Shown here piece after piece: positions 8,826 through 39,931 of a stretch of DNA of 64,000 nt (position 1 is its first letter; each line of letters starts with the position of its first letter). The notes below the pieces were generated by a model. That model ran no database searches. It had not been told where the DNA came from and saw only the letters and a list, made by a program, of their open reading frames with translations. Source of the DNA: Candidatus Hydrogenedens sp. (GTDB lineage Bacteria; Hydrogenedentota; Hydrogenedentia; Hydrogenedentales; Hydrogenedentaceae). The DNA is taken from positions 6,668 through 70,667 of the forward strand of contig DAOSUS010000008.1 in the NCBI GenBank assembly GCA_035378955.1. The letters are read 5' to 3'. The translations under genes and the position numbers were made by a program.

Positions 8826-10022
8826 TTGTATATGATACCACGAAGATGGATACATATTTTACCCTCTGAATATAACGAAGTTCTAAATCCTTCCCACCCA
8901 TTACTATCGAATTACAATATTGTTTCTCAATGGGAAAAAGAGTTTGGTAATTTCATAGGTTCTCCCAATACGGTTGCACTTCCCTCCGGAAGAATTGGAC
9001 TTAAACTTATTTTACAATATTTGAACCTTCAAGAAAATGATGAAGTAATTATTCCAGCCCTAACATTGAAGGCATTGGTAAGTATTATCAAATCATTAGG
9101 TCTTAAACCCGTTTGTGCCGACATAGACCCTAAAACATTAAACATAGACCCCGAATCGGTACGCAATTTAATTACACCTCGAACCAAAGCCATTATCGCA
9201 TTACATACCTTTGGCAACCCCTGCCTAATTGAAGAAATATGTAAAATAGGACAGGAAAACAATATCCCTGTTATAGAAGATGCTGCTCATGCATGTGGCG
9301 CTAAAATACAAAATAAATTCGTAGGAACATTTGGATATGCGGGCTTTTTTAGTTTTGATATATCTAAACCTATAAATACATACGGTGGGGGAATGCTTGT
9401 TAGTGAAGACTTATCACTAATTGATTTCGTAAGAGAATATAATAAAAAACTAATTTTAGACACAACTGAAATAACCAAAAAAGCAAAGTCTATTAAGTTA
9501 GAACAGGCACTATATAAATTAAAACTTATGTATCCCATTCTCTTTTTAAGACTGTTCCGATTTTTCTTCAAGTCTCTGGAATTTGTATACCGTAAAATTC
9601 AAAGTGTTCCCCCTGAAAATATCCAATTTACACCTTTACAAGCAAGTATAGGTATAGAAAAGTTATCTTTACTAAATTCAAGAATAGCGCAAAGAAATGA
9701 AGTAGCACAATTATACCGCAAATTATTATCCGATAAAATTGATATTCCTTATGTAACTTCTGAATGTATACCTTCTTATTACATGTTTGTTGTTATTCTT
9801 CCTAAAAAATCTCATAACATCTGTAGATCTCTCCTTTTCCATGGAATAGATACCGCATTTAAAGAAGAGGTTATAGATGATGTGTCCCTATTAGTTGAAA
9901 AATCACATTGTCCAAATGCGAATGGAGTTTATCCCTATTTACTTGCGTTACCTTTCTATGATGTTATTTCAAAAGATACCATTGAATATATATGTAATTG
10001 CCTGAACGAACTTGTAGAATAA
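8826..10022 (+). CDS. DegT/DnrJ/EryC1/StrS family PLP-dependent sugar aminotransferase
   Basis: Motifs DAAHACGA and the lysine-containing SFDISKPI; fold-type I sugar aminotransferase length and layout. Confidence 0.75.
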   Translation: MYMIPRRWIHILPSEYNEVLNPSHPLLSNYNIVSQWEKEFGNFIGSPNTVALPSGRIGLKLILQYLNLQENDEVIIPALTLKALVSIIKSLGLKPVCADIDPKTLNIDPESVRNLITPRTKAIIALHTFGNPCLIEEICKIGQENNIPVIEDAAHACGAKIQNKFVGTFGYAGFFSFDISKPINTYGGGMLVSEDLSLIDFVREYNKKLILDTTEITKKAKSIKLEQALYKLKLMYPILFLRLFRFFFKSLEFVYRKIQSVPPENIQFTPLQASIGIEKLSLLNSRIAQRNEVAQLYRKLLSDKIDIPYVTSECIPSYYMFVVILPKKSHNICRSLLFHGIDTAFKEEVIDDVSLLVEKSHCPNANGVYPYLLALPFYDVISKDTIEYICNCLNELVE

Positions 10023-24827: not shown

Positions 24828-25401
24828 ATTTTTTCATTAACTCCTCTGTTTGTTGTAATTTTTCAGGAGAAACATTTTCAATACGATGACCCACTTTTCG
24901 TGCGGGGACTCCTGCCCATACCTCCAAAGGTCCTACCTTTGTATCCTCTGTAAGGACACTTCCTACACCAATAATAGCGCCATCTCCAATTTCTACACCC
25001 GGATGTATATAACAACGACTACCCACAAGGACATTATCTCCAATAATTATCGGCTTAGCGATATGTGGTGTTAAGGCAAAATGTTCTTTTGTTCCCCAAA
25101 AAACATGGTGAGTATCTCTTATAACTGTAAATTCAGCAATAGCCGTATTACTTCCAATTTGTATTAATGCAGTAGATTCTAAAATTGTATAGTAACTTAA
25201 TACGGAGTGAGTACCCATTATTATTTTTCCATCTCTATGGGTACGAAGTATCACATAATCTCGAAAACGACAATAATCCCCACATTCTACATGTCCCTCT
25301 ATAGTAAAGTGTTTCCCCTGAATACGACATCTCTTCCCTTTTTTGGCAAATTTTAAGCCATGATAGAAACTTCGCCAGCGAACTAAAAAAGGTTCAAACA
25401 T
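24802..25401 (-). CDS. hexapeptide-repeat (LbH) acyl/acetyltransferase
   Basis: Imperfect [LIV]-G-x-x-x-x hexapeptide repeats (IGDNVLVGSRCYIHPGVEIGDGAIIGVGSV). The gene sits inside the RND operon and overlaps the tolC-like start by 26 nt. Confidence 0.65.
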   Translation of the reverse strand: MFEPFLVRWRSFYHGLKFAKKGKRCRIQGKHFTIEGHVECGDYCRFRDYVILRTHRDGKIIMGTHSVLSYYTILESTALIQIGSNTAIAEFTVIRDTHHVFWGTKEHFALTPHIAKPIIIGDNVLVGSRCYIHPGVEIGDGAIIGVGSVLTEDTKVGPLEVWAGVPARKVGHRIENVSPEKLQQTEELMKKYGIRKFRY

Positions 25402-25425
25402 GTTTTATTATTCCTTCATCCATTC

Positions 25426-28400
25426 TTATAGTGAACTATTTTCTAATTGCCGTTTTTGTTCTAACATTGAAAATACGGGTTCCACTTCTTCAGGTTTGGG
25501 AATTTTTCGAGTTTTAATTATATAAAATAATCTTCGAATATCATTTAGTACACCAATAATAGTAGGTATAAATAAAAGCGTTACTGTAGTGGAAAATACT
25601 AAACCAATTGCTAAAGAAACGGCCATCGGCTTTATGAATTGTGCCTGCATATCACGCGTAAAGAGCAATCCAACAAGTCCTCCGAATGTAGTACTTGAAG
25701 TTAAGAAAATAGCCCGAAATCTTCTCTTCCCAGCTTGAAGGATTGATGAAATAAAACTATTTCCTTCGCTAAGGTTTGCATTAAAACAATCTACAAAAAC
25801 AATGGCATCGTTAACAACCACCCCGGAAAGAGCAACAATCCCGAATAAGCTCATGAGTGTTACAATTTGTCCGAATAATAAGTGTCCAATTAGTGCTCCC
25901 ACAATTCCAAATGGAATTGTAAGCATAATCAGTATTGGCTGAGTATAGGAATGGAATATGGATGAAATAATCAGAAAAATCAGCAATAAAGCAATCGGAA
26001 ACCCTACTTTTAATGAAGCCAGAGCATCTCTACTGCTTTGTTGGGGTCCTTCAAATGACCATATTAATCCCGGATATTTCTTTTGAAGAGATGGGAGAAA
26101 AGTATTTGTTAAATCATTAATAATTTCTGTTGAATTAGTCTTTGTTGAGTCTATATCTGCTGTAACAACCACTCTTCGCATCCCATCAACGCGTGTTATT
26201 GAAGAAAATCCAGGAGTAAAATCTACATCGGCAACAGCAAATAGAGGAACTTCATATCCTTGATTGGTCCTTATACGGACTTGATTTAATATAGAAAGGT
26301 AACTACGGTCTTCACGAGGATAGCGAACCCGTATGCGGATATCATCCCTACCCCTTTGTATTCGGACAGCCTCTTCCCCAAAGAAACCACCGGCTAATTG
26401 TCTGCCTAAGGAATCCAGGGTTATTCCCAATGTTTGTGCTTCAGGTTTCAAATAAAATCTCGCTTCAATTTTTGCAGGACGGTAATCATCTTCAATCTGA
26501 TATACCCCTTCATAAGTCTTAAGTTTTTCTTTTATCTCTTGACTGGCATGAATTATATCTTGAAGATTTTCACTTCTTAACCATAATTCTATCCCCGTTC
26601 CCCGTGGACCTCCACCACTTACATCATATTTCTGTTTTAATGTCCCCGGAATTATCCCCGTCTCTTTCGCCCACATAGAACTTATTTTCTTCGCATGAAT
26701 CCCCCTTCGTTCTGTAGGTAATAACTCTACTCGAATTTCACCCACATTACTTCCACCCTGAGCAGAAAAGCCACTGCTACTCTGCCCTACGACACTATAG
26801 ATATTCTGAATTAATGGTTCACCGCTTATTGTAGTTGTCTTTTCTGCTAACCTTTTAAGAGCCTCCTCCATCCTCTTTACCGCATCTTTGGTAACATGAA
26901 AAGGTGTCCCCGCTGGGAACTCAACTTGTGCCATTAAAGAATCTCCATCAGCGTCAGAAAAGACTTCAAATTTAATAATCTGTCCTCGGACAAGTCCCAG
27001 TACCGTTAATAATATGGCTATAAAAGCAGTTAATGAAATATAACGATGTTTTAACATAGTATTTAAAATCGGGAGATATATTTTATCAATAAAAGCATCA
27101 AGAGAATCGCTAAAGAACCATCTTAGTTTTCTCAAAGGATGTTTCCGATTATCGGAATTTGAAATAGTATGAGATAAATCAGGGAGGTCATTGAGATGAG
27201 CAGGAAGTAAGAAAAGAGCTTCAGATAATGATATACTTAATGCCGAAATAACAACTATTGGTAAAATGCGGATAAACTTGCCCATAATTCCACTCACAAA
27301 CATCAATGGTAAAAATGCCGCTATTGTTGTGGTTACAGCCCCTATGACAGGCAATCCCACTTCTTCCACACCTGTTAACGCTGCCTTCATAGGTGGTAGT
27401 CCTCGCTGACGATGGTAATATATCGCTTCACCAATTACTATCCCATCATCAACCAACATACCTAACACCATGATTAACCCAAATAATGACATCATGTTTA
27501 TGGTACTTCCAAGATAATACATAATGCTAATAGCCCCTGCAAAGGAAATAGGAATGCCTAAAGTAACAAAAAAGGATAAACGAGCATTCATTAATAACAG
27601 CAACATTAAAATTACAATAATTAACCCTTGAATTCCATTTTCTTCAAGTAACTTCAATCGGGCTCGAATTAACCGGGCTCCATCGTTCCATAAAGAAATT
27701 TTTACGCCGGGAGGCAACTGTTTTTGTTTCGCCTCTACATATTTATGAACTGCATCGGATATGGCTATATCATCTTCTTCTTGTGTTTTGAAACACGAAA
27801 TTAAAACGGACTTCTCCCCATTAAAATCTGCCTCTAAGGGGTCTTCGTTAAAATCATCTCGTATTTCCGCTACCTGGTCCAGTGTAATAACTTCACCCGT
27901 AGGTTTGGCAAGCACAACTATCTTAGCCAGTTCATCCGCATAATATTTTCTTCCTATTGTTCGAACTCGTATTTCCGCTCCTTTCGAACGAATAAGTCCC
28001 CCGGAAATATTTAAGTTTCCAGAACGAATTGCTGATGCTACCTGTGAAAATGTTAGTCCTAATTTTTGAAGTTTTTCTTCCGAAATCTCAATTCCTATTT
28101 CGTACTGTTTCGCTCCAAAAATAAAAACTTGTGAAAGTTCCGGTAGGGCTTGTAATTCATCTTTTATTTGTTCCGCCCACTCTTTTAAGATTTTATCCGG
28201 CAAATTCCCTGATAAGGCAACTTGAATAACCTCACGGCGGATAGTTACTTCATTAGTTATAGGTTTCTCGGCATCTTTTGGAAATGTAGAAATAGAATCA
28301 ATAGCATTGCGAACCTTATCATAAACCTTGCTTAAATCATAACTATCCATCACCTCAATATTTGCCATTCCCATATTTTCTGAAGCAACCGTTGTATATC

Positions 28401-28638
28401 GTTTGATTCCTTCCACAGTGTCTAAAGATTCTTCAATCTTTCGACAAATTCCTTCTTCGACTTCTTCGGGGTCTGCACCAGGATAAAGCACCTGCACGGT
28501 TATCATATCCAACGAGAACTCCGGGAATAACTCTCTTCGGATTAATAACAAAGAAATTAGTCCCGCAATAAGAATAACAGCAGTTAGTATATTTGCAAAA
28601 ACACGGTTTCCGACAAAATACCCTAAAAACTGATTCAT
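25426..28638 (-). CDS. RND superfamily efflux permease (AcrB/CzcA-like)
   Basis: 1070 aa with 12 TM helices, two large periplasmic loops and conserved RND motifs. Confidence 0.85.
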   Translation of the reverse strand: MNQFLGYFVGNRVFANILTAVILIAGLISLLLIRRELFPEFSLDMITVQVLYPGADPEEVEEGICRKIEESLDTVEGIKRYTTVASENMGMANIEVMDSYDLSKVYDKVRNAIDSISTFPKDAEKPITNEVTIRREVIQVALSGNLPDKILKEWAEQIKDELQALPELSQVFIFGAKQYEIGIEISEEKLQKLGLTFSQVASAIRSGNLNISGGLIRSKGAEIRVRTIGRKYYADELAKIVVLAKPTGEVITLDQVAEIRDDFNEDPLEADFNGEKSVLISCFKTQEEDDIAISDAVHKYVEAKQKQLPPGVKISLWNDGARLIRARLKLLEENGIQGLIIVILMLLLLMNARLSFFVTLGIPISFAGAISIMYYLGSTINMMSLFGLIMVLGMLVDDGIVIGEAIYYHRQRGLPPMKAALTGVEEVGLPVIGAVTTTIAAFLPLMFVSGIMGKFIRILPIVVISALSISLSEALFLLPAHLNDLPDLSHTISNSDNRKHPLRKLRWFFSDSLDAFIDKIYLPILNTMLKHRYISLTAFIAILLTVLGLVRGQIIKFEVFSDADGDSLMAQVEFPAGTPFHVTKDAVKRMEEALKRLAEKTTTISGEPLIQNIYSVVGQSSSGFSAQGGSNVGEIRVELLPTERRGIHAKKISSMWAKETGIIPGTLKQKYDVSGGGPRGTGIELWLRSENLQDIIHASQEIKEKLKTYEGVYQIEDDYRPAKIEARFYLKPEAQTLGITLDSLGRQLAGGFFGEEAVRIQRGRDDIRIRVRYPREDRSYLSILNQVRIRTNQGYEVPLFAVADVDFTPGFSSITRVDGMRRVVVTADIDSTKTNSTEIINDLTNTFLPSLQKKYPGLIWSFEGPQQSSRDALASLKVGFPIALLLIFLIISSIFHSYTQPILIMLTIPFGIVGALIGHLLFGQIVTLMSLFGIVALSGVVVNDAIVFVDCFNANLSEGNSFISSILQAGKRRFRAIFLTSSTTFGGLVGLLFTRDMQAQFIKPMAVSLAIGLVFSTTVTLLFIPTIIGVLNDIRRLFYIIKTRKIPKPEEVEPVFSMLEQKRQLENSSL

Positions 28639-29984
28639 GAAACGGCTTCCTTATCTCCCAATTTTTGAACTTCCAGTAATGAATTTTCTATCGGATTAAT
28701 TAAACGGGTTGTAATAACTACAGTCCCTGCTTTAAGACCACTCACTATCACTTCATCGCCTTGAATATATAACCTCTCTACTTGAACTGATTTCAATCGG
28801 TTATTTTCTGCCGTATAAACTATCCCTTCAAAACTTACAGCCGTATCCGGCAACCGATATACTCCCGACAATACTTTTCCCGGAATTTTTACCTGACAAA
28901 ACATACCCTGAACCAATGGGATTTTATCATCCGTTATTGAAAAAATATTTTCCTTCTCAATACGAATAACTGTATAAACTGTCCTCGTTTTCTCATCATA
29001 CCTTTCGATACGGTTTAATAATCCTTTCCATTTATGATTTTCCTTGTCTTCTGTCCACAAAATCTCGCATTCTTTAGGCTCTAATGGTGGAAACCATGCA
29101 GAATCAATATTTATATTATCTTTCTGAAACGGAAGCCATTGGGTCGCTTGTTTTGCATCTAAGGGAACGGATATTTCCAGAATGGAATCATCTGAAAGAG
29201 TCATTACAACAGCACCAGGGTTCACATACTGCCCTGCCTCAAGATTAACTGTTTTAATCCGTGCATTAAAGGGAACTTTCACCTGGGTCCGTGATAAATT
29301 AATCTCAGCCTGAGATAATTGGGCTTCTGCGCTTTTTACTGCTTCCTCGGATTCTCTAACTTTTAAAGGATATAACTCAACGGATTGAACCAATAGGTTA
29401 TAAGCATCCAATGCCTGATTATAAGCCCTCTCTGTTTGTTCAACATTGGATTGTGTCCCTACTTTTTCTCTTTCAAATAACTGCTTTACACGCTGAAACT
29501 CTGAATAAGCCAGGTCTTTTGTGCGTTCTAATGTTTTTAGTCGTTCCTTATCAGAGGCAAACTGTTCCTGTATTCTTTTCAATGTTTGTCTCGATTGCTC
29601 TAAACCTGCTTGTGCAGACTTTAATCGCACCTGATAGTCACTGGGGTCTATTTCAAATAAAACTTCTCCCGCCGGAATAACTTCACCGGCTTCAAGTCTT
29701 GGATGTATGCGAATAACGCGTCCTGATACTTCCGGGGATATAGGAACAGTCGCTAAGGTCCGAACTTCTCCAAAACCGTTCAATATAATCGGGACATCTT
29801 CGGGCTGAGCCTGAATTACATTAACAGGAATGGGAATTTCTTCCTGTTCCGCTTGTGCAGGCGGCTTGCGAAGGGAGGAAAAGAAAACGAATGAAATAAT
29901 CCCTAATAACAAAATTAAAATAGCGATAAAAAATGAGAATAACTTTGCTATTGTTAAATATCTTTTTACTTCATCATTACTCAT
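28635..29984 (-). CDS. RND efflux membrane fusion protein (HlyD/AcrA family)
   Basis: N-terminal TM, coiled-coil hairpin, lipoyl and beta-barrel segments. It overlaps the RND gene by 4 nt (ATGA). Confidence 0.75.
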   Translation of the reverse strand: MSNDEVKRYLTIAKLFSFFIAILILLLGIISFVFFSSLRKPPAQAEQEEIPIPVNVIQAQPEDVPIILNGFGEVRTLATVPISPEVSGRVIRIHPRLEAGEVIPAGEVLFEIDPSDYQVRLKSAQAGLEQSRQTLKRIQEQFASDKERLKTLERTKDLAYSEFQRVKQLFEREKVGTQSNVEQTERAYNQALDAYNLLVQSVELYPLKVRESEEAVKSAEAQLSQAEINLSRTQVKVPFNARIKTVNLEAGQYVNPGAVVMTLSDDSILEISVPLDAKQATQWLPFQKDNINIDSAWFPPLEPKECEILWTEDKENHKWKGLLNRIERYDEKTRTVYTVIRIEKENIFSITDDKIPLVQGMFCQVKIPGKVLSGVYRLPDTAVSFEGIVYTAENNRLKSVQVERLYIQGDEVIVSGLKAGTVVITTRLINPIENSLLEVQKLGDKEAVS

Positions 29985-29998: not shown

Positions 29999-30472
29999 TT
30001 ATTTATTGGTATTCTGAACGGTTATTAAATATTCTCTTATCTTTTTATAAACATCAACCCATTGAGATGCCGTTTCATCGCCTAAACCCTTTAACAATTC
30101 ACTTATCCCCGTTAAAATCTGATTTTCATGCCATTTTAGAGTTTCACTGGCTTCCGGTGTTAAGCGTATCTGTATCTCACGACGGTCCTCCGACGACTGT
30201 TCGCGAACTACTAAACCTAATTCTACCAATCGGTCTAACATCAAACTTGCTGCAGAAGGTGATACATATAAATATTCTGCTAACTCTTTTAATTTTAATG
30301 GCTCACAGTCCTTTATTGTAATCAACATCTGGAACTGCGGCATTGTCAGGTCATGCCCTAACTTTATTTTTTCTTTATCGGCAGAACAACAATGGAACCT
30401 GTTATGCATCCACCGTTGTATCATCTGAATTGTTTTGAATATTTCGTAGACTAACTCATCATAGCGTTCCAT
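29999..30472 (-). CDS. MarR family transcriptional regulator
   Basis: Winged-HTH MarR pattern (LTMPQFQMLITI...LAEYLYVSPSAASLMLDRLVELGLV). Confidence 0.75.
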   Translation of the reverse strand: MERYDELVYEIFKTIQMIQRWMHNRFHCCSADKEKIKLGHDLTMPQFQMLITIKDCEPLKLKELAEYLYVSPSAASLMLDRLVELGLVVREQSSEDRREIQIRLTPEASETLKWHENQILTGISELLKGLGDETASQWVDVYKKIREYLITVQNTNK

Positions 30473-30499
30473 TATTTATCTCCAAAATCTGCGAAAATC

Positions 30500-30868
30500 C
30501 TATTTTTGAATTTTTTCTTTAATTACTTCCGTCATCTGTTGAACCAACTCATCGGTAACAATTGTTTTCCCTTTTTCTACGCCTAAATCTGTTATTACAA
30601 TATGTTCAAAGGGTATTTCTCTCTTCTCAAATATTTTCTTCCCACAGGCAACAGAGCAACCATCTATTACCACATTCTTGTTTGCTGCTAATGCAGACTG
30701 TATAAAACCAGATGCATCAGATGCAACGCCTGAAAGACACGAACCACGACAAACTTTTTCTCTTACTAAATTTCTCATAACTCGGTCTGCTATCAGCCCC
30801 GTATTTGCGACACCAGAACAAGAGTAAATAAGAGTAACACCTTCTTCATTAGAACAATTACATTGCAT
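30500..30868 (-). CDS. DGC-domain putative zinc-binding protein
   Basis: Conserved D-G-C motif (VIDGCSVACG) plus additional Cys pairs. It is the first gene of the MarR-RND operon. Confidence 0.5.
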   Translation of the reverse strand: MQCNCSNEEGVTLIYSCSGVANTGLIADRVMRNLVREKVCRGSCLSGVASDASGFIQSALAANKNVVIDGCSVACGKKIFEKREIPFEHIVITDLGVEKGKTIVTDELVQQMTEVIKEKIQK

Positions 30869-31071
30869 AAACTCAATCCTTATAGTAATAGTTTTTTAAT
30901 TATTTTACCATAAAATAATTTAATAATCAAATTATTTTTTTTATTTATTATTTAATTATTAAAATATTTTATATTCTTATTAATAAAACACCAAAAATAA
31001 AAGGAAAGTTCCCTTCATGTGGTTTTTATCGTTATAATATAAACTAAAGTAAATAACTATCTTTGATTAAA

Positions 31072-32049
31072 ATGACTGCATTAGTAAAATGTGAACTTTG
31101 TCCGCGTTATTGTATTCTTGACAATGGTCAAAAAGGCGAATGCCGTATCCGCGTCAATATAGAGGGGAAACTTTATACTCTTACATATGGTCATCCCTGT
31201 TCTATCCATATTGACCCTGTAGAAAAAAAACCTCTTTATCATTTTTTACCGGGAACACCTATTTTATCGCTTGCCACTGTAGGTTGTAACCTTCATTGTA
31301 AAAATTGCCAGAATTGGGAAATATCTCAGACAGAACCTTATCAATTGGAAACAGAATTTATAGAACCTGAAAAAATTTCTACATTGGCTATCCAGTATCA
31401 ATGTCCTTCCATCGCTTATACTTATACAGAGCCATTGGCTTACTATGAATATACCTACGAGTGCTGTAAAATATCCGCTGAAAAAGGCTTAAAGAATGTT
31501 CTTGTAACCGCAGGATATATTAACGAAGAACCTTATAAAAGATTATTACCTCTTGTCCATTCTGCAAATATAGATTTAAAAGGCTTTTCAGAGGAATTTT
31601 ACAGGACGGTATGCGATGGAACTTTAAAGCCTGTATTAAAAACTTTGGAACTAACTAAAAATGCGGGCGTTGAATTAGAAGTTACAAATTTAGTTATTCC
31701 TACAATGAACGATAAAGATGAAGATTTTCAAAAACTATGCGAATGGGTAGTAAGTAATTTAGGAAAAGACACCCCATTACATTTCTCCCAATTCTATCCT
31801 CGTTACAAAATGACACATTTACCCCCAACACCTTTAGAAACCCTTCTGAAAGCGCGTCAAATTGCCTTAAATGTAGGTTTGCAATTTGTGTATATTGGGA
31901 ATATTATTCATAGAGAAAGTTCTAATACCTATTGCCCATCATGTAAAAGTTTACTTGTTGAACGATATGGCTTCAATGTTCTTCAAAATAATATTTCACA
32001 GGGGAAATGTCCCAAATGTAACACGGAGATATACGGAATATGGCAATAA
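31072..32049 (+). CDS. AmmeMemoRadiSam system radical SAM enzyme (PFL-activase-like)
   Basis: KCELCPRYC...GECRIR N-terminal Cys cluster and the CNLHCKNCQN radical-SAM motif, with the family length and layout. The ORF track starts at a TTG at 31063; ATG at 31072 is more likely. Confidence 0.75.
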   Translation: MTALVKCELCPRYCILDNGQKGECRIRVNIEGKLYTLTYGHPCSIHIDPVEKKPLYHFLPGTPILSLATVGCNLHCKNCQNWEISQTEPYQLETEFIEPEKISTLAIQYQCPSIAYTYTEPLAYYEYTYECCKISAEKGLKNVLVTAGYINEEPYKRLLPLVHSANIDLKGFSEEFYRTVCDGTLKPVLKTLELTKNAGVELEVTNLVIPTMNDKDEDFQKLCEWVVSNLGKDTPLHFSQFYPRYKMTHLPPTPLETLLKARQIALNVGLQFVYIGNIIHRESSNTYCPSCKSLLVERYGFNVLQNNISQGKCPKCNTEIYGIWQ

Positions 32050-32231
32050 ATAGACGAAGATTTTTATCATATTTTTTAACTGCTGTAATCACGAAATATG
32101 GTGTAAAAAAGCCTTCTTTAATTCGACAGACTTATGCTATACCACTACCTAATAAGAAAGTTCTTATTCATTTTACTACCAAAAATAAAAATAATATTTT
32201 TTCACCCAAACCTTCATCATGGATAGGTTGA
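32040..32231 (+). CDS. doubtful small ORF with twin-arginine-like N-terminus (MAINRRRFLSYFLTAVIT...)
   Basis: 63-codon ORF whose ATG lies inside the last codons of the radical SAM gene. It carries an RRRFLS Tat-consensus motif. It is out of frame with the downstream Memo gene. It may be spurious or a remnant. Confidence 0.15.
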   Translation: MAINRRRFLSYFLTAVITKYGVKKPSLIRQTYAIPLPNKKVLIHFTTKNKNNIFSPKPSSWIG

Positions 32232-32271
32232 AATTTAATATAATAATAAAAGGTCAATAAGGGGATATTCG

Positions 32272-33807
32272 ATGAGAAATTATTCCTATATAATTTTATT
32301 CCTTCTATTCATTGTTGTTATTCCATTTGCATGCGGAGAAAATTCCACTTCGAATAAGGAGAAAGAAGTTGGTTCTCCAAAAGTTTATAAATCACTAATA
32401 GCCGGCCAATGGTATGACGCATCTCCTCAAAAACTTACGCAGCAGATTTCGGAAATGTTTAATAAGGCAGATATAGAACCTATAGAAAATGTAATAGGAC
32501 TTATATTACCTCATGCAGGTTATATGTATTCTGGACTAACTGCATGCAAAGGGATTAAGGCAACAGATAAATCTTTATATTCCAGAATAATTATCTTGGG
32601 AACCAGTCATAGAGCACCCTTGGAGAATATTATAAGTATTCCCTCCGTAGATTTTTATGAAACACCCTTAGGACAAATACCTATTGATGTAGAAATTATT
32701 CAGGATTTAAAAAAATTTCCGTATTTTAAAGAAGTCCCTTTGGCTCAACAGGGAGAACATAGTATTGAAATTGAGTTGCCATTACTTCAATACGTTAAAA
32801 AAGACTTTAAATTAATTCCTCTAATTTGCGGAAAATTAGATTTAGAAACTACACAAAAAATAGCACAGATATTACAAAACTACATTGATGAAAAAACATT
32901 AGTCATTGCCAGTAGCGATTTCACTCATTATGGACCGAATTATAATTACATACCTTTTAGTGAGGACATTCCTAAAAATCTTAAAAAACTGGATATGGGA
33001 GCATATCAATATATAGAAAAACGGGATGTAAAGAAGTTTTATGAATATATTGAAAAAACAGGGATTACAATTTGTGGTCCGTATGGAATTGGAGTTTTAA
33101 TGTATCTATTACCCGAAAATACTCAAGTAAATCTTGTAGAATATAAACAATCCGGTGAAATTGTAAACGATTATCAGAATTCCGTAAGTTATTTCGGGAT
33201 TGCTTTCACTGGGACATGGGAAAAGAAGGAAAGAACACCTATGAATACTTCAACAACATTAACACCTGAAGAAAAAAAAGACTTATTAAAATTAGCACGC
33301 TGGACACTTGAATATGTGTTAGAACACAACAAATTGCCATCTGATAACGAAATACCCATCAAAGTAACAGAAATAATGAAAACACCACGAGCCGCCTTTG
33401 TTACTTTGAAAATAAACGAGGACCTTCGAGGTTGTATCGGCGAAATTTTTGCAACAAAACCTATGTATAAATCTGTTCTTCAAAACGCATATAATGCAGG
33501 TTTTAAAGATCCTCGATTTTACCCTATTTCAAAAGAGGAGTTACCTAAAATTAAAATTGATATATCCCTTCTTACCCATCCCCGAAAAATAAATCATTAT
33601 AACGAGATTGAATTAGGCAAACACGGAATTATTCTTAAAAAAGGTTATTATCAGGCTTTATTCTTACCGCAGGTAGCCCCTGAACAAAATTGGAATTTGC
33701 AGCAGACATTAGAACATCTGTCCATGAAAGCAGGATTACCACCTGATGGATATAAAGAAGGTGCTGAATTTGAAGTTTTTGAAGCAGAAGTATTCCACGA
33801 AGAGTAA
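32272..33807 (+). CDS. AmmeMemoRadiSam system proteins B+A fused (Memo-like domain + AMMECR1 domain) with hydrophobic N-terminal signal/anchor
   Basis: aa 1-25 hydrophobic (IILFLLFIVVIPFAC). The Memo fold motifs are AGQWYDAS, LPHAGYMYSG and GTSH. The C-terminal AMMECR1 motifs are PRAAFVTLKINEDLRGCIGE and KDPRF. Confidence 0.7.
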   Translation: MRNYSYIILFLLFIVVIPFACGENSTSNKEKEVGSPKVYKSLIAGQWYDASPQKLTQQISEMFNKADIEPIENVIGLILPHAGYMYSGLTACKGIKATDKSLYSRIIILGTSHRAPLENIISIPSVDFYETPLGQIPIDVEIIQDLKKFPYFKEVPLAQQGEHSIEIELPLLQYVKKDFKLIPLICGKLDLETTQKIAQILQNYIDEKTLVIASSDFTHYGPNYNYIPFSEDIPKNLKKLDMGAYQYIEKRDVKKFYEYIEKTGITICGPYGIGVLMYLLPENTQVNLVEYKQSGEIVNDYQNSVSYFGIAFTGTWEKKERTPMNTSTTLTPEEKKDLLKLARWTLEYVLEHNKLPSDNEIPIKVTEIMKTPRAAFVTLKINEDLRGCIGEIFATKPMYKSVLQNAYNAGFKDPRFYPISKEELPKIKIDISLLTHPRKINHYNEIELGKHGIILKKGYYQALFLPQVAPEQNWNLQQTLEHLSMKAGLPPDGYKEGAEFEVFEAEVFHEE

Positions 33808-33809
33808 TT

Positions 33810-36800
33810 GTGAAAAAATATCTATTACCCATTTCATTAGGTTTGTTTTCAATTACTGCACAAGCATTGCTTGTGCGTGATTTCTTACATTGTATCGAAG
33901 AAAACGAACTTACATTAGGTATTCTTTACTTCTTTTGGTTTTTATGGATTATTCCCGGCTCTCTTGTTGGAAAACTTTTTTACAAATATTCCTACCTTTT
34001 TCCGATTACCTCTCTTCTCTATATTCCATCATGGTTATGGGGTCATTTTCTGGTTCGTAATTCACGATATATCTCGGATATCCCAACATATGAACTCTTT
34101 AACATCCACGACCTCTTTTTATATTCTGCAATAGCACCCGCAGGGATAAGTTTCTTTACAGGATTTTTATTTACCCATTGTGTCTTATGGTGGGAGAACA
34201 ATTTTATCCATAAAACAAGTAATTCCCAACCTTCGACAATAGTTCGTCATGTATATGCTTATGAGGCTTTAGGTGCAGTATTGGGTGGAGTTATTACCTC
34301 TATTAGTATTTTTTTGGGACTTTCTCATTGGATACCCTTTTGTATTTCCGTATGGTTTCTAATTACTTCCTCTCTATTATCATTAGATTATCCATTCTTG
34401 GAAAAAGTATTACCTATTGCTCTTCTTCCATTACTCCTACTATCAACATTCCTTCTGGAATCGTGGGAAAACAAATCCCTGTGGAATCATATTACAAAAA
34501 ATGAAAATTTTAAAGGGAAAATAATTACTCAAAAAGGGGAATATTTATACGGGTATGATAATAGCCAATTTATCCTTCTACGAAACCTCAAGCCCGTATT
34601 AAGTTTTCCAAATCAGGAATACGGTTTGCATTTACTATCTACTTTCCTTGCCCAGAAAAATGATGCAAAAAACATTCTACTTATAGGAGAACCTTTTCTT
34701 TATACATTACCCTATTTAATAAATATCAACAGTATAGAAAAAATTTTATGGATACCTTTTGACTTTGAACTATCCACAAAAATTATTCCATTATTATCTG
34801 AAAATTCTCTTTTTAATAATAAAAAACTCGTATTTCCACAAGCCGAACCCCATTCTTTTTTGAAAAATACGGACGATAGATTTGACATTATCCTTGTCTA
34901 TACAAGTGACCCACAAACTATTTCTTCTAATCAATATTTAACGGATAGTTTTTTTACTTTGCTCAAAACTCATCTTGCAGATAAAGGTATAGGAGGTATT
35001 CGAATTTCGGGGGGAGAAAATTTTTTAGGTGGTGAAATAGCCACACTTGGCGCATCCATATACTTTACTTTTCAGCAGGTATTTAAAGTTAATGCATTGA
35101 AACCCGGTAATGAAACATGGTTATTCGGCTCTTTAACTCACCCTATAAGCGAGCATATACCAACCCTTGAACAACGATTGTCCGTCATATCTCAACAAAT
35201 TTCAGAAATCAAACCCAATATTGTAAGAGACTTATATCCCGCAGATAGAATTATTTTTCAAAAAAATCGTTATGAAGAAGTAAAGAAATTTATCCATGAA
35301 GACTACTTAATTGCCACAGAGAACAAATATCTCGGCTTTTTATATAGTAATCTTTTATATCTCTGGAAACAGGGTTATTCGGGATTATTAGATAAAATTA
35401 TTACCATTAAACAAATTACCCTTTTTCTTATAATCTCATCTCCCTTATGTTTCATATTAGCCCGCGGAATATATAAACGAAAATCTATTCAGAAAGGAAA
35501 AGAAAAATATCTTTCTACTACATTAGAGACATACTTTGCTATTTTTGTTATTGGCACCATTGGCATGGGGATTACTATCCTACTACTTATACAATTTCAA
35601 TACCGTTATGGGACTCTTTCAACTTATATCGGGCTATTATCATCTATGTTTATGCTGGGACTTTCAATAAGTCCTATTATTTTTAATTTTCTGTATGCAG
35701 ACAAAAATAATAAACGACCTTTCTTTGTTCTCCTCTTTCTTGTTTCTATTTGTATTTGCTATACCCTTGTAATACTGTTTGTTTTACCTCCCTATTTTTA
35801 TACTTACCTCGCTATATTCTTTTTATGGGGGCTTACTTTATCTTTTCTTCTCTCCCTGTTCCTGAATAACTTAGATAAAGAAGCAGAAACCGCTCAAATT
35901 GCTGTAAATTTAGAGGTATGGGACCACCTCGGAGCAGGAATAGGGGCTTTTATATTCCCTATTATTCTACTTCCGATTTTAGGATTACAATATGCCATCG
36001 GATATATTCTTTTTTCTCTACTCCTAATTCTTCTATGTATTCCCCTTCTTCAAAAAATCCCCACATCCCAGTCTCCGTCATGGGGAAGAATTTATGGATA
36101 TACGCTATTCCCTATTCTTGTATTATGCTTTATCTCTACAGAGATATATTACCGTTCTACAGTTCCTTTACCCGAAGATACATTTACAAAAATCGCACAG
36201 GAATTATCTGATGGGGGAAAACTCCAACCGGAAACAACAACTCTTCCTGATAACAGGGAAATTCGTTACTATTCCGTTATAAAAAAGGATGAAAACCAGA
36301 ATGAAATTATTTCCTACATCTTTTCCACTGCCTCTCTTTTCAAGGTAATTGGATATGGTGGAGAAATAGACATTGCAGTTAAAGTATCACAGGAAGGAAT
36401 CATTGAAAATATTAAGGTCATTCAATCCAATGAAACTCCTGATTATCTATCTCTTGTTGAAAATTACTTCTTTTCATATAAAGGGAAAAATATATTCCGA
36501 CCCGAAACTATATCGGTAATAGATGCCGTTAGCGGAGCCACAACAACCTCTGATGCTGTAAAAAGAGCTGTTCAGTTTGCGGGAAAGGAATTTGCTCAGA
36601 TTATCCAGAACAATAACATAAATCGCTCGGAAACATTATTTACCTATGGGACCTCTACCCCAACAACATATTCCGTATATATCTTTCTATTATTTATTCT
36701 TCTGGCAATAATCTTTCGATTTTTCTATAAAGACTTGCTTCGAACATTATGGTTAATTTCTGTAGTAGTCATTTTAGGCTTCTGGTTAAATATTCAATAC

Positions 36801-37367
36801 GGACTTTACTCTATCGTTCAATTATTATCTGCTGACAAGTTACAATTTCATTTTACTATCTCAACCCTTTTAACCATCGGCATCCCAGTTCTTGTTCTTA
36901 TTAATGGAAATATTTACTGCGGATATTTATGTCCATTCGGGGCACTGTCGGAACTAATAAGTAAATTTAATTGGATAAATAAAAGAATAACTCCTACGAA
37001 AAAAACATGGTATACAGCCCGACAATTTAAATTTATTCTTGCCTTTTTATTTTTCTTAATATACTTTTTTATACGAAAAAATAAACTCATTAGCATTGAC
37101 CCTTTACTTTCCTTTTTCACCCTGGATATGTCAAACTATATAACAATATTTGGAATTTGTGTTTTGCTGGCAAGTCTTTTTTATAACCGTTTCTGGTGCA
37201 GGGTGCTTTGTCCCACAGGTGCTTTTTTAAGTTTAATCCAATCCTTTCGGATATTTTCATTCTTCTGGCAAAGAACTTTCCCTGCACATTGCGACCTTGG
37301 AATATCAAGAACTGAAGAAATAGACTGTATTCAATGTAATCGGTGCTACAAACATGAAAAGAAATGA
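33810..37367 (+). CDS. large chimeric membrane protein: N-terminal TM + spermidine-synthase-like (PABS) domain + polytopic TM block + FMN-binding (NosR/NqrC/RnfG-type) domain + NapH/NosR-like 4Fe-4S polyferredoxin membrane domain
   Basis: GTG start 2 nt after the Memo-AMMECR1 stop. aa ~280-480 carry a PABS-like core (FDIILVYTSDPQT, cf. SpeE FDVII.D.TDP). aa ~800-930 carry an FMN_bind motif (VSGATTTSDAVKRAV). aa ~1000-1185 carry two CxxxCP motifs (CGYLCPFGA, CRVLCPTGA) and a terminal Cx11CxxCxxC. Confidence 0.6.
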   Translation: MKKYLLPISLGLFSITAQALLVRDFLHCIEENELTLGILYFFWFLWIIPGSLVGKLFYKYSYLFPITSLLYIPSWLWGHFLVRNSRYISDIPTYELFNIHDLFLYSAIAPAGISFFTGFLFTHCVLWWENNFIHKTSNSQPSTIVRHVYAYEALGAVLGGVITSISIFLGLSHWIPFCISVWFLITSSLLSLDYPFLEKVLPIALLPLLLLSTFLLESWENKSLWNHITKNENFKGKIITQKGEYLYGYDNSQFILLRNLKPVLSFPNQEYGLHLLSTFLAQKNDAKNILLIGEPFLYTLPYLININSIEKILWIPFDFELSTKIIPLLSENSLFNNKKLVFPQAEPHSFLKNTDDRFDIILVYTSDPQTISSNQYLTDSFFTLLKTHLADKGIGGIRISGGENFLGGEIATLGASIYFTFQQVFKVNALKPGNETWLFGSLTHPISEHIPTLEQRLSVISQQISEIKPNIVRDLYPADRIIFQKNRYEEVKKFIHEDYLIATENKYLGFLYSNLLYLWKQGYSGLLDKIITIKQITLFLIISSPLCFILARGIYKRKSIQKGKEKYLSTTLETYFAIFVIGTIGMGITILLLIQFQYRYGTLSTYIGLLSSMFMLGLSISPIIFNFLYADKNNKRPFFVLLFLVSICICYTLVILFVLPPYFYTYLAIFFLWGLTLSFLLSLFLNNLDKEAETAQIAVNLEVWDHLGAGIGAFIFPIILLPILGLQYAIGYILFSLLLILLCIPLLQKIPTSQSPSWGRIYGYTLFPILVLCFISTEIYYRSTVPLPEDTFTKIAQELSDGGKLQPETTTLPDNREIRYYSVIKKDENQNEIISYIFSTASLFKVIGYGGEIDIAVKVSQEGIIENIKVIQSNETPDYLSLVENYFFSYKGKNIFRPETISVIDAVSGATTTSDAVKRAVQFAGKEFAQIIQNNNINRSETLFTYGTSTPTTYSVYIFLLFILLAIIFRFFYKDLLRTLWLISVVVILGFWLNIQYGLYSIVQLLSADKLQFHFTISTLLTIGIPVLVLINGNIYCGYLCPFGALSELISKFNWINKRITPTKKTWYTARQFKFILAFLFFLIYFFIRKNKLISIDPLLSFFTLDMSNYITIFGICVLLASLFYNRFWCRVLCPTGAFLSLIQSFRIFSFFWQRTFPAHCDLGISRTEEIDCIQCNRCYKHEKK

Positions 37368-37677
37368 TTTTATTTTTTTAACTGTTTCATTACTCTACAC
37401 CACTACTTTTATTGTTATCCTTCTTTACCATGTCTTACCTGAAAAATCATCAGCAGAATTATCTTCTATACAGACAGAAGGAACTTCAATTAAACCTACA
37501 GGAACCGCAACCGATATTGAAAAAATTAAAAGCATGATAAAAACTAACAAACTTTCAGATAAGGAAGCCCTGTTTTATAAAAAGTTGACAGAGGAAGAAA
37601 ATAATAAAAATGCAAACCCTAAAGAACATCAACAAATTCGCAAGCGATGGAGACGAGGTAGGCAAGGAGAAAATTAA
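37354..37677 (+). CDS. small membrane-anchored protein with charged C-terminal tail
   Basis: 107 aa with an N-terminal TM, then a K/E-rich tail ending RKRWRRGRQGEN. It overlaps the preceding gene by 14 nt and is probably the last gene of the operon. Confidence 0.3.
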   Translation: MKRNDFIFLTVSLLYTTTFIVILLYHVLPEKSSAELSSIQTEGTSIKPTGTATDIEKIKSMIKTNKLSDKEALFYKKLTEEENNKNANPKEHQQIRKRWRRGRQGEN

Positions 37678-37759: not shown

Positions 37760-39931
37760 ATGAAGCAAAAACAAACAAATATCCTTTCTGATATACAAAC
37801 ATTAGACTTATTAGAAAAATATAAAATACCTGCTGCTGATTTTCGCATCTGCCATAATTTAAATGAAGTTATTTCAGCCTCGAAAGAATTAGGATTTCCA
37901 ATAACAATTAAAGGGATGGTAGAAGGGATTGCCCATAAAAGCGATTTGGGATTGGTAAAAACAGGTTTAAAATCGGAAGAAGATTTATTAACAGCAACAA
38001 AAGAAATACAGAACAACTCCCAAAATCATTGTTTATCAGGCTTTTTATTACAAAAACATATTTTTGGGAAACGAGAACTTATTGTTGGAGGAATGAAACA
38101 TAATGAATATGGTTTATGTGTTTACATTGGGATAGGAGGTATTTTTGTAGAAGCGGTAGAGGATGTGGCTTTCCGTGCTGCCCCTATCAGTGAAATTGAT
38201 TTACAAGAAATGATTTCAGAATTGCATTTCAAAAAAATCTTTCAATCTTTCCGCGGAGACCCTCCCATTGATACACAAAAACTTTTTGCCATAATAAAAT
38301 CTATTGAAAATCTATTAGGTAATGAAACAGAAATTAGTCAATTGGAATTAAATCCCATTTTAATACATCATGATGCACCTATTGCCGTAGATGCACTTAC
38401 GGTTAAAGGAAATACCCCTGTAAAGGATATTCAGCCGAGAATTACCTCACTTGATTTTAATAAATTATTAAAACTATTTGAACCAGAAAGTATAGCCATT
38501 GTTGGTATAACAGATACCCCAATCAAATGGGGTTTTCGTGTTCTATTTAATACTCTGGAAGGCGGATATACAGGAAAAATATATGGTGTCAATCCGAAAC
38601 GGAGTGAGGTCTTAAATATTCCTTGCTATCCTTCAATTTCTGCCTTGCCTGAAGTAGTTGATTTAGCAGTTATTATTGTTCCGCCTCCAGCTGTTCAGCC
38701 TTCGGTTCAGGAATGTATTCAAAAAGGTATCCAAGTTGTATTGGTCATAACAGCAGGTTTCGGGGAATTAAATGATGAATTGGCTCAAACCGCTCAAGAT
38801 AAATTAAAACAAATTGCCCTTGAAAATGACCTGTATCTTATCGGTCCCAATTGTGCCGGCGTCGTTAGTCCAGACCCTAAAAAACTGTATTGTTCTATGA
38901 TAGGAAGATATCCACAACCCGGAGGATTAGGCATCTTATCTCAGAGTGGGAATATCGGTAATACAGCAATGAGTTGGGCTATGGAGCATCATTTAGGACT
39001 GTCAAGGTTTATTAGTACAGGGAATGAAGCCGTCATTAAGAACTATCACTACCTAAACTTTTTAGGTTCTGACCCCAAAACGAAAGTAATTTTTTCTTAT
39101 ATTGAAAGTGCAAAAGATATTCATCTTTTCTTCAACGAATTAAAACATGTAACGCAGAAAAAACCAGTAATAATATTGAAAGGTGGTAAAACACAAGCAG
39201 GTTCTCGTGCTGCATCCTCTCATACCGGAGCATTAGCCACGGATTACCGATTATTTCGTGGAATTTGTGTCCAACAAGGAGCCCTACTAACTGAAGATGT
39301 TTATGAAGCCGTAGAGACAGCCCACCTTCTTTCTAATGTTCCACTACCCCGAGGAAGGAATGTAGGTATTTTATCGCAGGGAGGTGGTTGGGGTGTGATT
39401 TCTGCAGATGTATGCACAAAAGCAGGATTAAATGTTATACCTCTATCTGAAAACACATTAAAAAGATTAGATGCCATTATGCCTAAATGGTGGAACCGAA
39501 CAAATCCTGTAGATATGGTAGCAGGGACAGATATGGACTTATTCAAAAATTCTATGGAAATACTAATTCAGGACGAGGAAATTGATATTCTGGTTATTTT
39601 AGGTATTGGCTACATTGGCAGTGCCTATATCCGTTTACAAAATTCAGAACGGGCAAAAAATTTGGGACTTAACAAGCTATCTGAAATCGGAACTCAATTT
39701 GAGATAAAAGATGCAGAAGAAATTGCAAAACTCATGCAAACCTATCAAAAACCTATTATTGTAGCTTCCGACACAACTATTCTATCTCACGGTCAAAATA
39801 TAAACCCCGTGCTAAAAAGATTAGAAGAAATGAACATTTATGTTTTCCAAAATCCAACCAACATGGCCAAAGCTATTGCCCACCTCTGCCGATATAGCGA
39901 ATACATCAGAAATACACCACGAACTTTTTAA
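37760..39931 (+). CDS. acyl-CoA synthetase (NDP/ADP-forming) family, fused ATP-grasp (beta) + CoA-binding/ligase (alpha) domains
   Basis: N-terminal ATP-grasp followed by a CoA-binding Rossmann (IAIVGITDTP...VNPK) and a phospho-His loop region (ASSHTGALA). Length is ~720 aa. Confidence 0.65.
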   Translation: MKQKQTNILSDIQTLDLLEKYKIPAADFRICHNLNEVISASKELGFPITIKGMVEGIAHKSDLGLVKTGLKSEEDLLTATKEIQNNSQNHCLSGFLLQKHIFGKRELIVGGMKHNEYGLCVYIGIGGIFVEAVEDVAFRAAPISEIDLQEMISELHFKKIFQSFRGDPPIDTQKLFAIIKSIENLLGNETEISQLELNPILIHHDAPIAVDALTVKGNTPVKDIQPRITSLDFNKLLKLFEPESIAIVGITDTPIKWGFRVLFNTLEGGYTGKIYGVNPKRSEVLNIPCYPSISALPEVVDLAVIIVPPPAVQPSVQECIQKGIQVVLVITAGFGELNDELAQTAQDKLKQIALENDLYLIGPNCAGVVSPDPKKLYCSMIGRYPQPGGLGILSQSGNIGNTAMSWAMEHHLGLSRFISTGNEAVIKNYHYLNFLGSDPKTKVIFSYIESAKDIHLFFNELKHVTQKKPVIILKGGKTQAGSRAASSHTGALATDYRLFRGICVQQGALLTEDVYEAVETAHLLSNVPLPRGRNVGILSQGGGWGVISADVCTKAGLNVIPLSENTLKRLDAIMPKWWNRTNPVDMVAGTDMDLFKNSMEILIQDEEIDILVILGIGYIGSAYIRLQNSERAKNLGLNKLSEIGTQFEIKDAEEIAKLMQTYQKPIIVASDTTILSHGQNINPVLKRLEEMNIYVFQNPTNMAKAIAHLCRYSEYIRNTPRTF

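Follow-up and report, generated by a model that had tools for sequence, protein, structure and literature searches.

A stretch of 64,000 nucleotides from Candidatus Hydrogenedens sp. (assembly GCA_035378955.1, contig DAOSUS010000008.1, positions 6,668 to 70,667) was analysed, and this whole stretch is called the window here. The subject of the analysis is a five-gene operon on the plus strand at window positions 31063-37677. Its genes encode a radical S-adenosylmethionine (SAM) enzyme, a mini-protein, a fusion of Memo and AMMECR1, a large membrane protein referred to as the hub, and a small tail protein (Table 1). The window shares about 95% nucleotide identity and synteny with a contig of Candidatus Hydrogenedens terephthalaticus. 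An earlier sequence-only reading of this DNA had described an AmmeMemoRadiSam gene trio extended by the hub and a small membrane protein. Its coordinates of the open reading frames (ORFs), the gap of 2 nt before the hub gene and the overlap of 14 nt behind it were all reproduced. The ORF that it gave for the radical SAM gene, 31063-32049, also stands, but not the start: the true start is probably the ATG at 31072, which gives MTALVKCELCP as in the homologues, and not the TTG at 31063. The 63-residue gene, the export signal of Memo-AMMECR1, the fold of the hub membrane blocks and the identity of the 107-residue protein had been overlooked.

The hub was used to follow the system in other genomes. 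In a scan with one genome per species, a hub relative was encoded in 201 GTDB species. These belong to the Hydrogenedentota, many Planctomycetota (Phycisphaerae, Sedimentisphaerales and bins labelled Pirellulales), the Kiritimatiellia, the Victivallales and Lentisphaerales (Lentisphaerota) and the Verrucomicrobiota, with one Margulisiibacteriota cell. Eighty loci were fetched and combined with 4 metagenome loci, and the ORFs of the resulting 84 loci were called and searched with the window proteins. The order radical SAM, mini-protein, Memo-AMMECR1 and hub on one strand was found in all fetched loci with enough upstream DNA, except L058. At least five phyla share it, with genes that overlap or abut, and a few loci have insertions. 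In L058 (8564-13912; Lentisphaerales metagenome-assembled genome, JAQBFM010000030.1), the radical SAM gene and a mini-protein gene whose product ends in KWGG lie directly before the hub gene, with no Memo-AMMECR1 gene between them. The fusion may be encoded elsewhere in that genome, or the remaining trio may work without it. An extra gene of 189-195 codons lies between the radical SAM and mini-protein genes in two Victivallales-like loci, L001 (5609-6178) and L035 (7436-8023). The encoded protein begins with a signal-like segment and is similar in both loci, and no Pfam hit is recorded for the L001 gene.

Clustering of the ORFs over the 84 loci indicated that the gene families of the system itself are the only conserved ones, and the other neighbours vary. 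No family outside the system was present in more than 13 of the 84 loci. Among the families recurring in these loci there were no ApbE, Tat (twin-arginine translocation) component, nos/nap, lipid or isoprenoid genes, and no glycyl-radical enzyme was conserved in the neighbourhood. A scan for promoters and terminators gave results at chance level.

The three signature proteins of AmmeMemoRadiSam were all identified above their cut-offs, as the sequence-only reading had proposed. The radical SAM protein matched TIGR04337 with 385 bits (cut-off 220) and also PF04055. In the fusion, the Memo part matched PF01875 (E 2.7e-61) and TIGR04336 (228.1 bits, cut-off 26), and the AMMECR1 part matched PF01871 (E 4.5e-51) and TIGR04335 (168 bits, cut-off 99). 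The CxxxCxxC motif of the radical SAM enzyme is retained in 67 of 68 family members and its C-terminal CxxC...CxxC in 68 of 68. Radical_SAM and Fer4_12 are its sole Pfam domains above cut-off. The models of pyruvate formate-lyase (PFL) activases were matched below their cut-offs, with 51.9 bits for TIGR02493 (E 6e-14, cut-off 231.75) and 42.1 bits for TIGR02494 (cut-off 174.35). Judged from these profiles, glycyl-radical activases are the nearest characterised relatives of the enzyme. Its net charge is about +2, and it is predicted to be cytoplasmic because it has no signal peptide.

The PHAG motif of Memo and the RGCxG and DxRF motifs of AMMECR1 are intact in 74 of 74 full-length fusions. Residues of the last two motifs have been proposed as the catalytic residues of AMMECR1, and Memo-AMMECR1 fusions as such have been described before (PMC2034487). 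A basic start and a hydrophobic stretch 15 or more residues long precede Memo in 69 of the 74 proteins, and in many a lipobox-like cysteine comes next. Because of this N-terminal signal anchor or lipoprotein signal, export of Memo-AMMECR1 and its anchoring to the outer face of the cytoplasmic membrane are predicted. The mature protein is acidic with a net charge of about -7. On a Segatella hominis plasmid (NZ_CP137560.1, locus L087, 4408-5883) the amrB fusion also starts with a signal-peptide-like sequence, MRKIVLVVLLTMCMMMEAK, next to a truncated amrS. Export of Memo-AMMECR1 may therefore extend beyond the hub-bearing clade, to judge from this N-terminus.

The mini-protein ORF lies in what seemed to be an empty interval of about 220 nt between the genes of the radical SAM enzyme and Memo, and it overlaps the radical SAM stop by 10 nt. 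An ORF of about 60 codons is present in every locus that covers this interval. Most loci have the start codon of this ORF overlapping the radical SAM stop, as ATGA, and its stop codon adjoining or overlapping the start of Memo. An alignment of 35 diverse members contains as invariant positions only the R-R pair, one Ala, one Phe, one Trp and the terminal Gly. The N-terminal motif is N-R-R-R-F-L-S in the window and MTRRKF[IL] in most loci, near the Tat consensus S/T-R-R-x-F-L-K. The majority ending is K-W-S-G, and the window protein ends in W-I-G. Between the two ends there are a moderately hydrophobic segment and then a basic tail, for which the median net charge is +7. The mini-protein is thus a predicted Tat substrate. 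No Pfam or NCBIfam model matched it even at E values up to 10, and a profile search retrieved 535 clusters, all labelled hypothetical and none with a Pfam domain. In L046 (8054-8404) an insertion of about 43 residues separates the signal segment from the PRKFVRA...KWSG tail; therefore the spacer tolerates differences in length. The middle region carries PRKFxRA...KYPG in Planctomycetota and is absent or different in Hydrogenedentota and Kiritimatiellia. It seems to co-vary with the glycine loop of the SpeE-fold domain of the hub (residues 288-301, L001-L084), which hints at a contact, although the hint is anecdotal with 5-6 independent lineages.

Twelve full-length hub homologues with 95-27% identity align end to end. 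Therefore, the hub ORF is one gene and not a frameshift artefact. Family-averaged hydropathy gave a protein of 20 helices, namely seven transmembrane (TM) helices, the SpeE part, eight TM helices, the FMN_bind domain and about five TM helices. The same helix count was obtained from an AlphaFold2 model with a mean predicted local distance difference test (pLDDT) value of 73, and of 80-90 over residues 1-750. The short loops contain 13-33 Lys and Arg residues on the side of the N-terminus versus 2-5 on the opposite side in all 13 aligned sequences. By the positive-inside rule, these counts place the N-terminus, the CX3CP motifs and the C-terminal cysteine cluster inside, and the SpeE fold, the flavin mononucleotide (FMN) domain and the tail outside. 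The CX3CP motifs and the cysteine cluster are also cytoplasmic in NapH and NosR. The polytopic blocks have the fold of the major facilitator superfamily (MFS), with twelve helices in two lobes. In the simplest layout, TM7 and TM8 would be an extra hairpin between the lobes that displays the SpeE fold on the outer face. Structural matches of the MFS part include lipid and amine transporters, and the best ones are cationic-amine transporters. Three membrane-embedded polar residues are invariant, E152, E702 and D705, of which the last two lie in the C-lobe.

The SpeE part of the hub matched Spermine_synth (PF01564) at residues 282-394 with 28.5 bits (cut-off 22.9), and both the N-terminal beta-hairpin domain and the Rossmann domain of the fold are present. 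It aligns with the region of true enzymes that binds decarboxylated SAM, but the GGGDG signature is missing. The first Asp of D-x-x-D-P is Tyr, His or Asn across the family (VYTSDP in the window), and the score against TIGR00417 is 27.7 bits with a cut-off of 249.55. The glycine loop reads G-S-G-L-G in Planctomycetota and G-P-G-S in Victivallales/Lentisphaerales. It is lost in Kiritimatiellia, Verrucomicrobiota, Margulisiibacteriota and Hydrogenedentota (ILLIGEPFL/IGEPFL in the window). The family has an invariant motif of its own, GGENxxGxE. Canonical aminopropyl transfer is unlikely because GGGDG, the first Asp and, in several lineages, the glycine loop are lost. An active aminopropyltransferase was rejected on the missing signature residues together with the predicted outside location. 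Binding or scaffolding appears more plausible from the sequence.

The FMN_bind domain (PF04205, residues 848-924) scored 53.6 bits with a cut-off of 22, and its matches in the PDB are RnfG and NqrC. It contains D-A-V-S-G-A-T, in which G909, A910 and T911 are invariant. The ApbE-type flavinylation motif is defined as [S/T]GA[S/T] (PMC8238504), and T911 (nt 36540-36542) is the predicted candidate site of covalent FMN. The Fe-S module matched Fer4_5 (PF12801) twice with 45.2 bits. All eight cysteines of the two CxxxCP motifs and the C-terminal cluster are invariant in the 13-sequence alignment. In the wider family, 81 of 83 hubs have at least two CxxxCP motifs and 82 of 83 have the cysteine cluster. 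The scores against the full-length models are low, with 49.6 bits for NosR (NF046105, cut-off 1000; 60 bits for the homologue P0011), 29 bits for NapH/MauN (TIGR02163, cut-off 213.05) and 24.1 bits for PRK09477 (cut-off 234). The match to RnfG is weak and below threshold. By its sequence, the module is NapH-like and not an orthologue of NosR or NapH.

Several claims of the sequence-only reading can be judged from these results. The FMN_bind, double CxxxCP Fer4_5 and SpeE-like domains that it had seen in the 1185-residue protein were verified by Pfam matches above threshold. The protein was treated there as a single gene, and the full-length homologues bear this out. Its NosR/NapH-type module is right for the NapH-like arrangement of Fe-S and FMN sites, but the module is no orthologue of either protein (49.6 versus 1000 bits, 29 versus 213 bits). 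The expected co-occurrence of the hub with AmmeMemoRadiSam genes was seen in all fetched loci with sufficient flanking DNA. The suggestion that such a module serves a partner outside the cytoplasm gained support from the signals on 69 of the 74 fusions.

The 107-residue protein has one TM helix and a predicted periplasmic motif, KLSDKEALFY, in its ending ...KTNKLSDKEALFYKKL. No Pfam or NCBIfam model matched it even at E values up to 10. The hubs of distant homologues are 1270-1450 residues long and have an extra C-terminal TM helix followed by ...[KR]LS[DE]xEAx[FY]Y. This ending was found with a strict pattern in 57 of 83 hubs. Compared in this way, the 107-residue protein is the C-terminal tail of the hub as a separate product; the two parts are fused in P0010-P0012 and in all lineages outside the Hydrogenedentota. 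The 14-nt overlap of the two genes (37354-37367, ATGAAAAGAAATGA and variants, with the pattern ATGA...TGA) is kept in all Hydrogenedentota loci (L004-L011), which have 44-95% protein identity. Because the overlap is kept while its sequence varies, a frameshift or pseudogene was rejected, and the split is a genuine lineage-specific gene fission with translational coupling. A reading of the KLSDxEAxFY tail as a SHOCT-like motif was dropped, as no model supported it.

Table 1. Genes and protein features of the operon in window coordinates.
Feature	Position (nt)	Strand	Remarks
Radical SAM gene	31063-32049	+	328 aa
Mini-protein gene	32040-32231	+	63 aa
Mini-protein, Tat-type signal MAINRRRFLS...	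about 32049-32066	+	then hydrophobic segment and basic tail
Mini-protein, C-terminal W-x-G (WIG)	32220-32228	+	invariant
Memo-AMMECR1 fusion gene	32272-33807	+	511 aa
Fusion, signal/lipobox-like segment, aa 1-21	32272-32334	+	Cys21; ...VVIPFAC-GENS
Fusion, Memo domain	32398-33198	+	PF01875
Fusion, AMMECR1 domain	33286-33795	+	PF01871
Hub gene	33810-37367	+	1185 aa; start 2 nt past preceding stop
Hub aa 1-229, MFS N-lobe	33810-34496	+	TM1-6 and extra TM7 leading outward
Hub aa 230-525, complete SpeE fold	34497-35384	+	predicted outer face
Hub aa 530-783, MFS C-lobe	35397-36158	+	TM8 return helix, TM9-14, TM15 out to FMN domain
Hub aa 800-930, NqrC/RnfG/NosR-type FMN_bind	36207-36599	+	PF04205; predicted outer face
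Hub aa 952-1185, NapH/NosR-like membrane Fe-S module	36663-37367	+	PF12801 twice; 5 TM helices
Hub, first CxxxCP	36918-36935	+	C1037, C1041
Hub, second CxxxCP	37197-37214	+	C1130, C1134
Hub, C-x11-C-x2-C-x2-C	37290-37346	+	C1161, C1173, C1176, C1179
Tail gene	37354-37677	+	107 aa; overlaps hub gene by 14 nt

The locus was compared with known systems. It agrees with AmmeMemoRadiSam in that the three signature proteins are adjacent, with the fusion and the catalytic motifs intact. It differs in that the radical SAM gene comes first, a Tat-signal W-x-G mini-protein is inserted, the fusion bears a signal and the hub always follows. On an Ideonella dechloratans plasmid, amrB (a Memo-AMMECR1 fusion with no signal) is followed by amrS, with no small ORF and no hub. 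The Segatella hominis plasmid likewise has no peptide and no hub, and the Trichlorobacter plasmid has amrS alone. In the last case (Trichlorobacter lovleyi, L085, 9082-10098), the lone amrS lies about 2 kb from a gene for ApbE, the FAD:protein FMN transferase. Housekeeping genes stand between them, and the proximity is probably a coincidence. Since the mini-protein and the hub have no counterpart in these inspected canonical plasmid loci, they are clade-specific additions.

A small peptide beside a radical SAM enzyme, modified to become a cofactor or a subunit, is well known from MftA/MftC (mycofactocin), PqqA/PqqE (PQQ) and QhpC/QhpD, in which the conserved residues are at or near the C-terminus of the peptide. 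The gamma subunit of quinohaemoprotein amine dehydrogenase (QHNDH) is a peptide that is modified in the cytoplasm, used in the periplasm and carries a Trp-derived quinone. The present operon resembles the three pairs by its precursor-like peptide gene adjoining the radical SAM gene and overlapping its stop in most loci. Here, however, the enzyme is PFL-activase-like without SPASM or RRE, Tat export is predicted, and the peptide gene is coupled on both sides. PflA-type activases abstract hydrogen from the glycine in R-V-S-G-Y of PFL and GrcA. The K-W-S-G ending of most mini-proteins is similar to this motif, but its glycine ends the protein, in a short tail that is probably unstructured, and a conserved glycyl-radical enzyme is missing from the neighbourhood. 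The mini-protein also differs from DUF4266 of the flavinylation-associated DsbD systems (PMC8238504) in its W-x-G without cysteine, its Tat-type signal and its partners.

A recognised modular class of NapH-like proteins has its FMN domain at the N-terminus and connects electron pools of the membrane with enzymes outside the cytosol (PMC8238504). The hub contains PF12801 and PF04205 in one polypeptide with TM helices, which is the operational definition of Meheust et al. 2021. It shares with these systems, including NosR and PceC, the PF12801 domain with two CX3CP motifs and a preceding extracytosolic FMN_bind domain (Meheust et al. 2021, PMC8238504). It differs from them in the fused MFS/SpeE part, the Memo-AMMECR1 and radical SAM partners and the lack of a linked apbE. 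The survey of flavinylated systems makes no mention of Memo, AMMECR1, radical SAM or spermidine synthase (PMC8238504). The hub is like NosR in its predicted periplasmic FMN_bind domain with the flavinylation motif, followed by TM helices with two CX3CP motifs. In contrast to NosR, it has one C-terminal four-cysteine site and not two ferredoxin motifs, and no conserved linkage to nos genes. An MFS-type membrane domain with a SpeE fold is shared with NF037959 (fused MFS/spermidine synthase) and PRK03612. The hub family scored 37-64 bits against PRK03612 (cut-off 472), and the C-lobe block of P0008 matches the membrane domain of this model. NF037959 gave no match for the window hub and 22.9 bits for P0011 (cut-off 40). 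Unlike these proteins, the hub carries SpeE between the MFS lobes on two extra helices, predicted to be outside, lacks GGGDG and the first Asp, and has FMN and Fe-S modules appended.

From the observed gene content, order, coupling, conservation, motifs and folds, we propose that the region is an envelope-spanning variant of AmmeMemoRadiSam, in which the mini-protein would link the cytoplasmic radical SAM enzyme to Memo-AMMECR1 outside. The proposal is tentative, and its probability is put at roughly 40%. The enzyme is predicted inside and four modules are predicted outside (the SpeE fold and the FMN domain of the hub, Memo-AMMECR1 and the mini-protein tail), so that some connector is required. 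The hub by itself offers both a path from Fe-S to FMN and a transporter fold across the membrane. The chemical steps below, the way in which electrons flow and the part played by the mini-protein are inferred. The radical SAM enzyme would modify the W-x-G end in the cytoplasm; this target is suggested because the nearest characterised relatives abstract hydrogen from a protein glycine. Tat acts only post-translationally, so that the modified mini-protein would be the form that is exported. At the outer face of the membrane, Memo, with its fold of aromatic-ring dioxygenases, and AMMECR1, with its conserved catalytic cysteine, would complete the chemistry of the Trp/Gly end. The hub would move electrons between its cytoplasmic Fe-S sites and the periplasmic FMN and so serve the redox reaction, as has been proposed for other proteins of the modular NapH-like class (PMC8238504). 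The usual reductant of PFL activase is flavodoxin, an FMN protein. The MFS/SpeE part would move or hold a small, probably cationic, co-substrate or product. The opposite charges of the mini-protein tail (about +7) and mature Memo-AMMECR1 (about -7) count in favour of the proposal. Memo is reported to bind a phosphotyrosine peptide in its vestigial active site (Qiu et al. 2008).

A number of points weigh against this proposal. The tie between the mini-protein and the radical SAM enzyme is a genomic one. A Pfam search of the enzyme at E values up to 0.01 found neither SPASM nor RRE. The enzyme is an ordinary TIGR04337 member, so that a change of substrate class is not obviously to be expected, and the two canonical amrB-amrS pairs that were inspected have no such peptide. 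The start/stop overlaps on both sides suggest 1:1 subunits and not a substrate in excess. The topology of the hub is predicted from hydropathy, the positive-inside rule and the AlphaFold2 helix count, and not from coordinates or experiment, and the NapH-like part of the model has a low confidence (pLDDT 40-65). ApbE and Tat genes were not found among the 37 scanned ORFs of the window, which reach up to about 50.5 kb. The twin arginine is replaced by S-R-G-V-F-L and G-R-G-V-F-L in the mini-proteins of L009 (1011-1229) and L010 (3277-3495). Both are Hydrogenedentota-type loci, the L010 bin being labelled Nitrospirales, and Tat targeting is in question there. Lastly, the proposal leaves the MFS and SpeE modules without a necessary role.

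A role for the MFS module is offered if the system has kept a canonical non-peptide substrate, such as a nucleotide-like compound or an isoprenoid lipid. This would be processed by the radical SAM enzyme at the cytoplasmic face, flipped or exported by the MFS part and finished outside by Memo-AMMECR1 with electrons from FMN. The mini-protein would then be a docking or structural subunit. The complete MFS fold with lipid and amine transporters among its matches, the invariant E152, E702 and D705, and the predicted membrane tethering of both Memo-AMMECR1 and the mini-protein are consistent with this account. It also keeps the canonical substrate class of a standard TIGR04337 enzyme, and start/stop coupling fits stoichiometric subunits. 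Burroughs et al. 2019 reportedly connected Memo gene contexts with the modification of isoprenoids and nucleotide bases. We nevertheless regard it as unlikely, for it leaves the invariant C-terminal W-x-G and the use of Tat rather than Sec unexplained, and lipid or isoprenoid-pathway genes are not conserved beside the operon. A further account assigns a role to every hub module by placing the whole system outside. The mini-protein would be a Tat escort that carries the folded Fe-S radical SAM enzyme as a hitchhiker, FMN would be a surrogate of flavodoxin, and the MFS/SpeE part would supply SAM or remove 5'-deoxyadenosine. The radical SAM enzyme is the sole soluble part without a signal, and its gene is coupled to a gene with a Tat signal. 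Fe-S proteins are typical Tat cargo, flavodoxin reduces PFL activase, and the hub-bearing lineages are, as we assume, mostly anaerobic. The best MFS matches are cationic-amine transporters, and the G-x-G loop and the adenosyl-contacting acidic motifs of SpeE are kept in Planctomycetota and Lentisphaerota. This account is distinctly improbable, since it requires unprecedented biology: to our knowledge, no periplasmic radical SAM enzyme and no bacterial SAM exporter have been found. The glycine loop is lost in the four other lineages named above, the charges of the radical SAM enzyme (about +2) and the mini-protein tail (about +7) do not match, and a tail of 30 residues is a small handle for hitchhiking. 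If it were true, the operon would encode the first extracytoplasmic radical SAM system.

The hub could also supply electrons inwards. Its cytoplasmic Fe-S sites would reduce the radical SAM enzyme, with electrons from quinol or from an oxidation by Memo-AMMECR1 outside via FMN. Every radical SAM enzyme requires a one-electron donor, the CX3CP motifs and the four-cysteine cluster are predicted on the side of this enzyme, and the hub and radical SAM genes remain linked in L058 as well, where an adjacent Memo-AMMECR1 gene is missing. Canonical systems, however, cope without such a donor, and the direction of electron flow is not readable from sequence. This idea is compatible with the other accounts, and we rate it as highly doubtful. 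The weak similarity to NosR and NapH would allow the hub to be a NosR-like respiratory or regulatory protein that merely adjoins an ordinary operon. This can hardly be right. The NosR score is far below its cut-off, nos/nap genes are missing from the recurring flank families, and the gene order with overlapping or abutting genes persists in the fetched loci with enough flank in at least five phyla while the other neighbours vary. Mere adjacency is effectively excluded by this conserved linkage.

Some other genes of the window were noted as well. Downstream of the operon, positions 37760-39931 (+) encode an ADP-forming acetyl-CoA synthetase-like protein of 723 residues (ATP-grasp_5, CoA_binding, Succ_CoA_lig). 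Its family is present in just 8 of the 84 loci, for example L004 with 44% hub identity, and it therefore reflects lineage synteny and is not a part of the system. Divergent from the operon lie genes for a DGC-domain protein and a MarR regulator and, farther upstream, a resistance-nodulation-division (RND) efflux set (29999-30868 and 23280-29984, both minus strand). The set consists of an HlyD-like protein, an AcrB-like protein, a hexapeptide-repeat transferase and an outer-membrane factor. The MarR and efflux families each occur in only 5 of the 84 loci. A separate cluster at 3659-10022 contains a second, unrelated radical SAM protein (6880-7872, minus strand). It also has genes for an LPG_synthase_TM-family membrane protein, a DegT-type aminotransferase and a carbamoyltransferase as well as HisF/HisH-like genes, and looks like a lipid or sugar modification cluster. 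On the minus strand there are also a protein of 1256 residues that is nearly all TPR repeats (10033-13803) and an FHA-GAF-adenylate/guanylate cyclase protein (17495-19135).

The three-gene AmmeMemoRadiSam neighbourhood, Memo-AMMECR1 fusions, NapH-like flavinylated modules and MFS/SpeE fusions were known before. As far as can be searched, the new elements are the conserved combination, the Tat-signal W-x-G mini-protein, the predicted extracytoplasmic Memo-AMMECR1 and SpeE fold, and the hub architecture. The view that such a system had not been described held: no description of this architecture was found in the searchable literature on AmmeMemoRadiSam, on AMMECR1 with radical SAM and on MFS/spermidine synthase, in which the Memo-context survey of Burroughs et al. 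2019 (JBC) was not covered.

Both Memo and AMMECR1 are ancient, and humans have homologues of each. MEMO1 is connected with cell motility and metal/redox biology, and AMMECR1 with an X-linked syndrome, but their biochemical reaction is still unknown. The bacterial three-gene system is an orphan without a known substrate, and here it gains a candidate substrate and a candidate redox partner. The mini-protein is a candidate for the substrate or a docking partner, and the hub for a dedicated transmembrane route of electrons and solutes. With this system, the modular class of NapH-like flavinylated systems, whose reactions are mostly unknown (PMC8238504), would gain a new type of partner. The widespread, uncharacterised theme of MFS fusions with a spermidine-synthase fold would gain its first functional context. 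The presence of the system in more than 200 species, mostly uncultured ones, makes it a trait of whole lineages rather than a peculiarity of a single genome.

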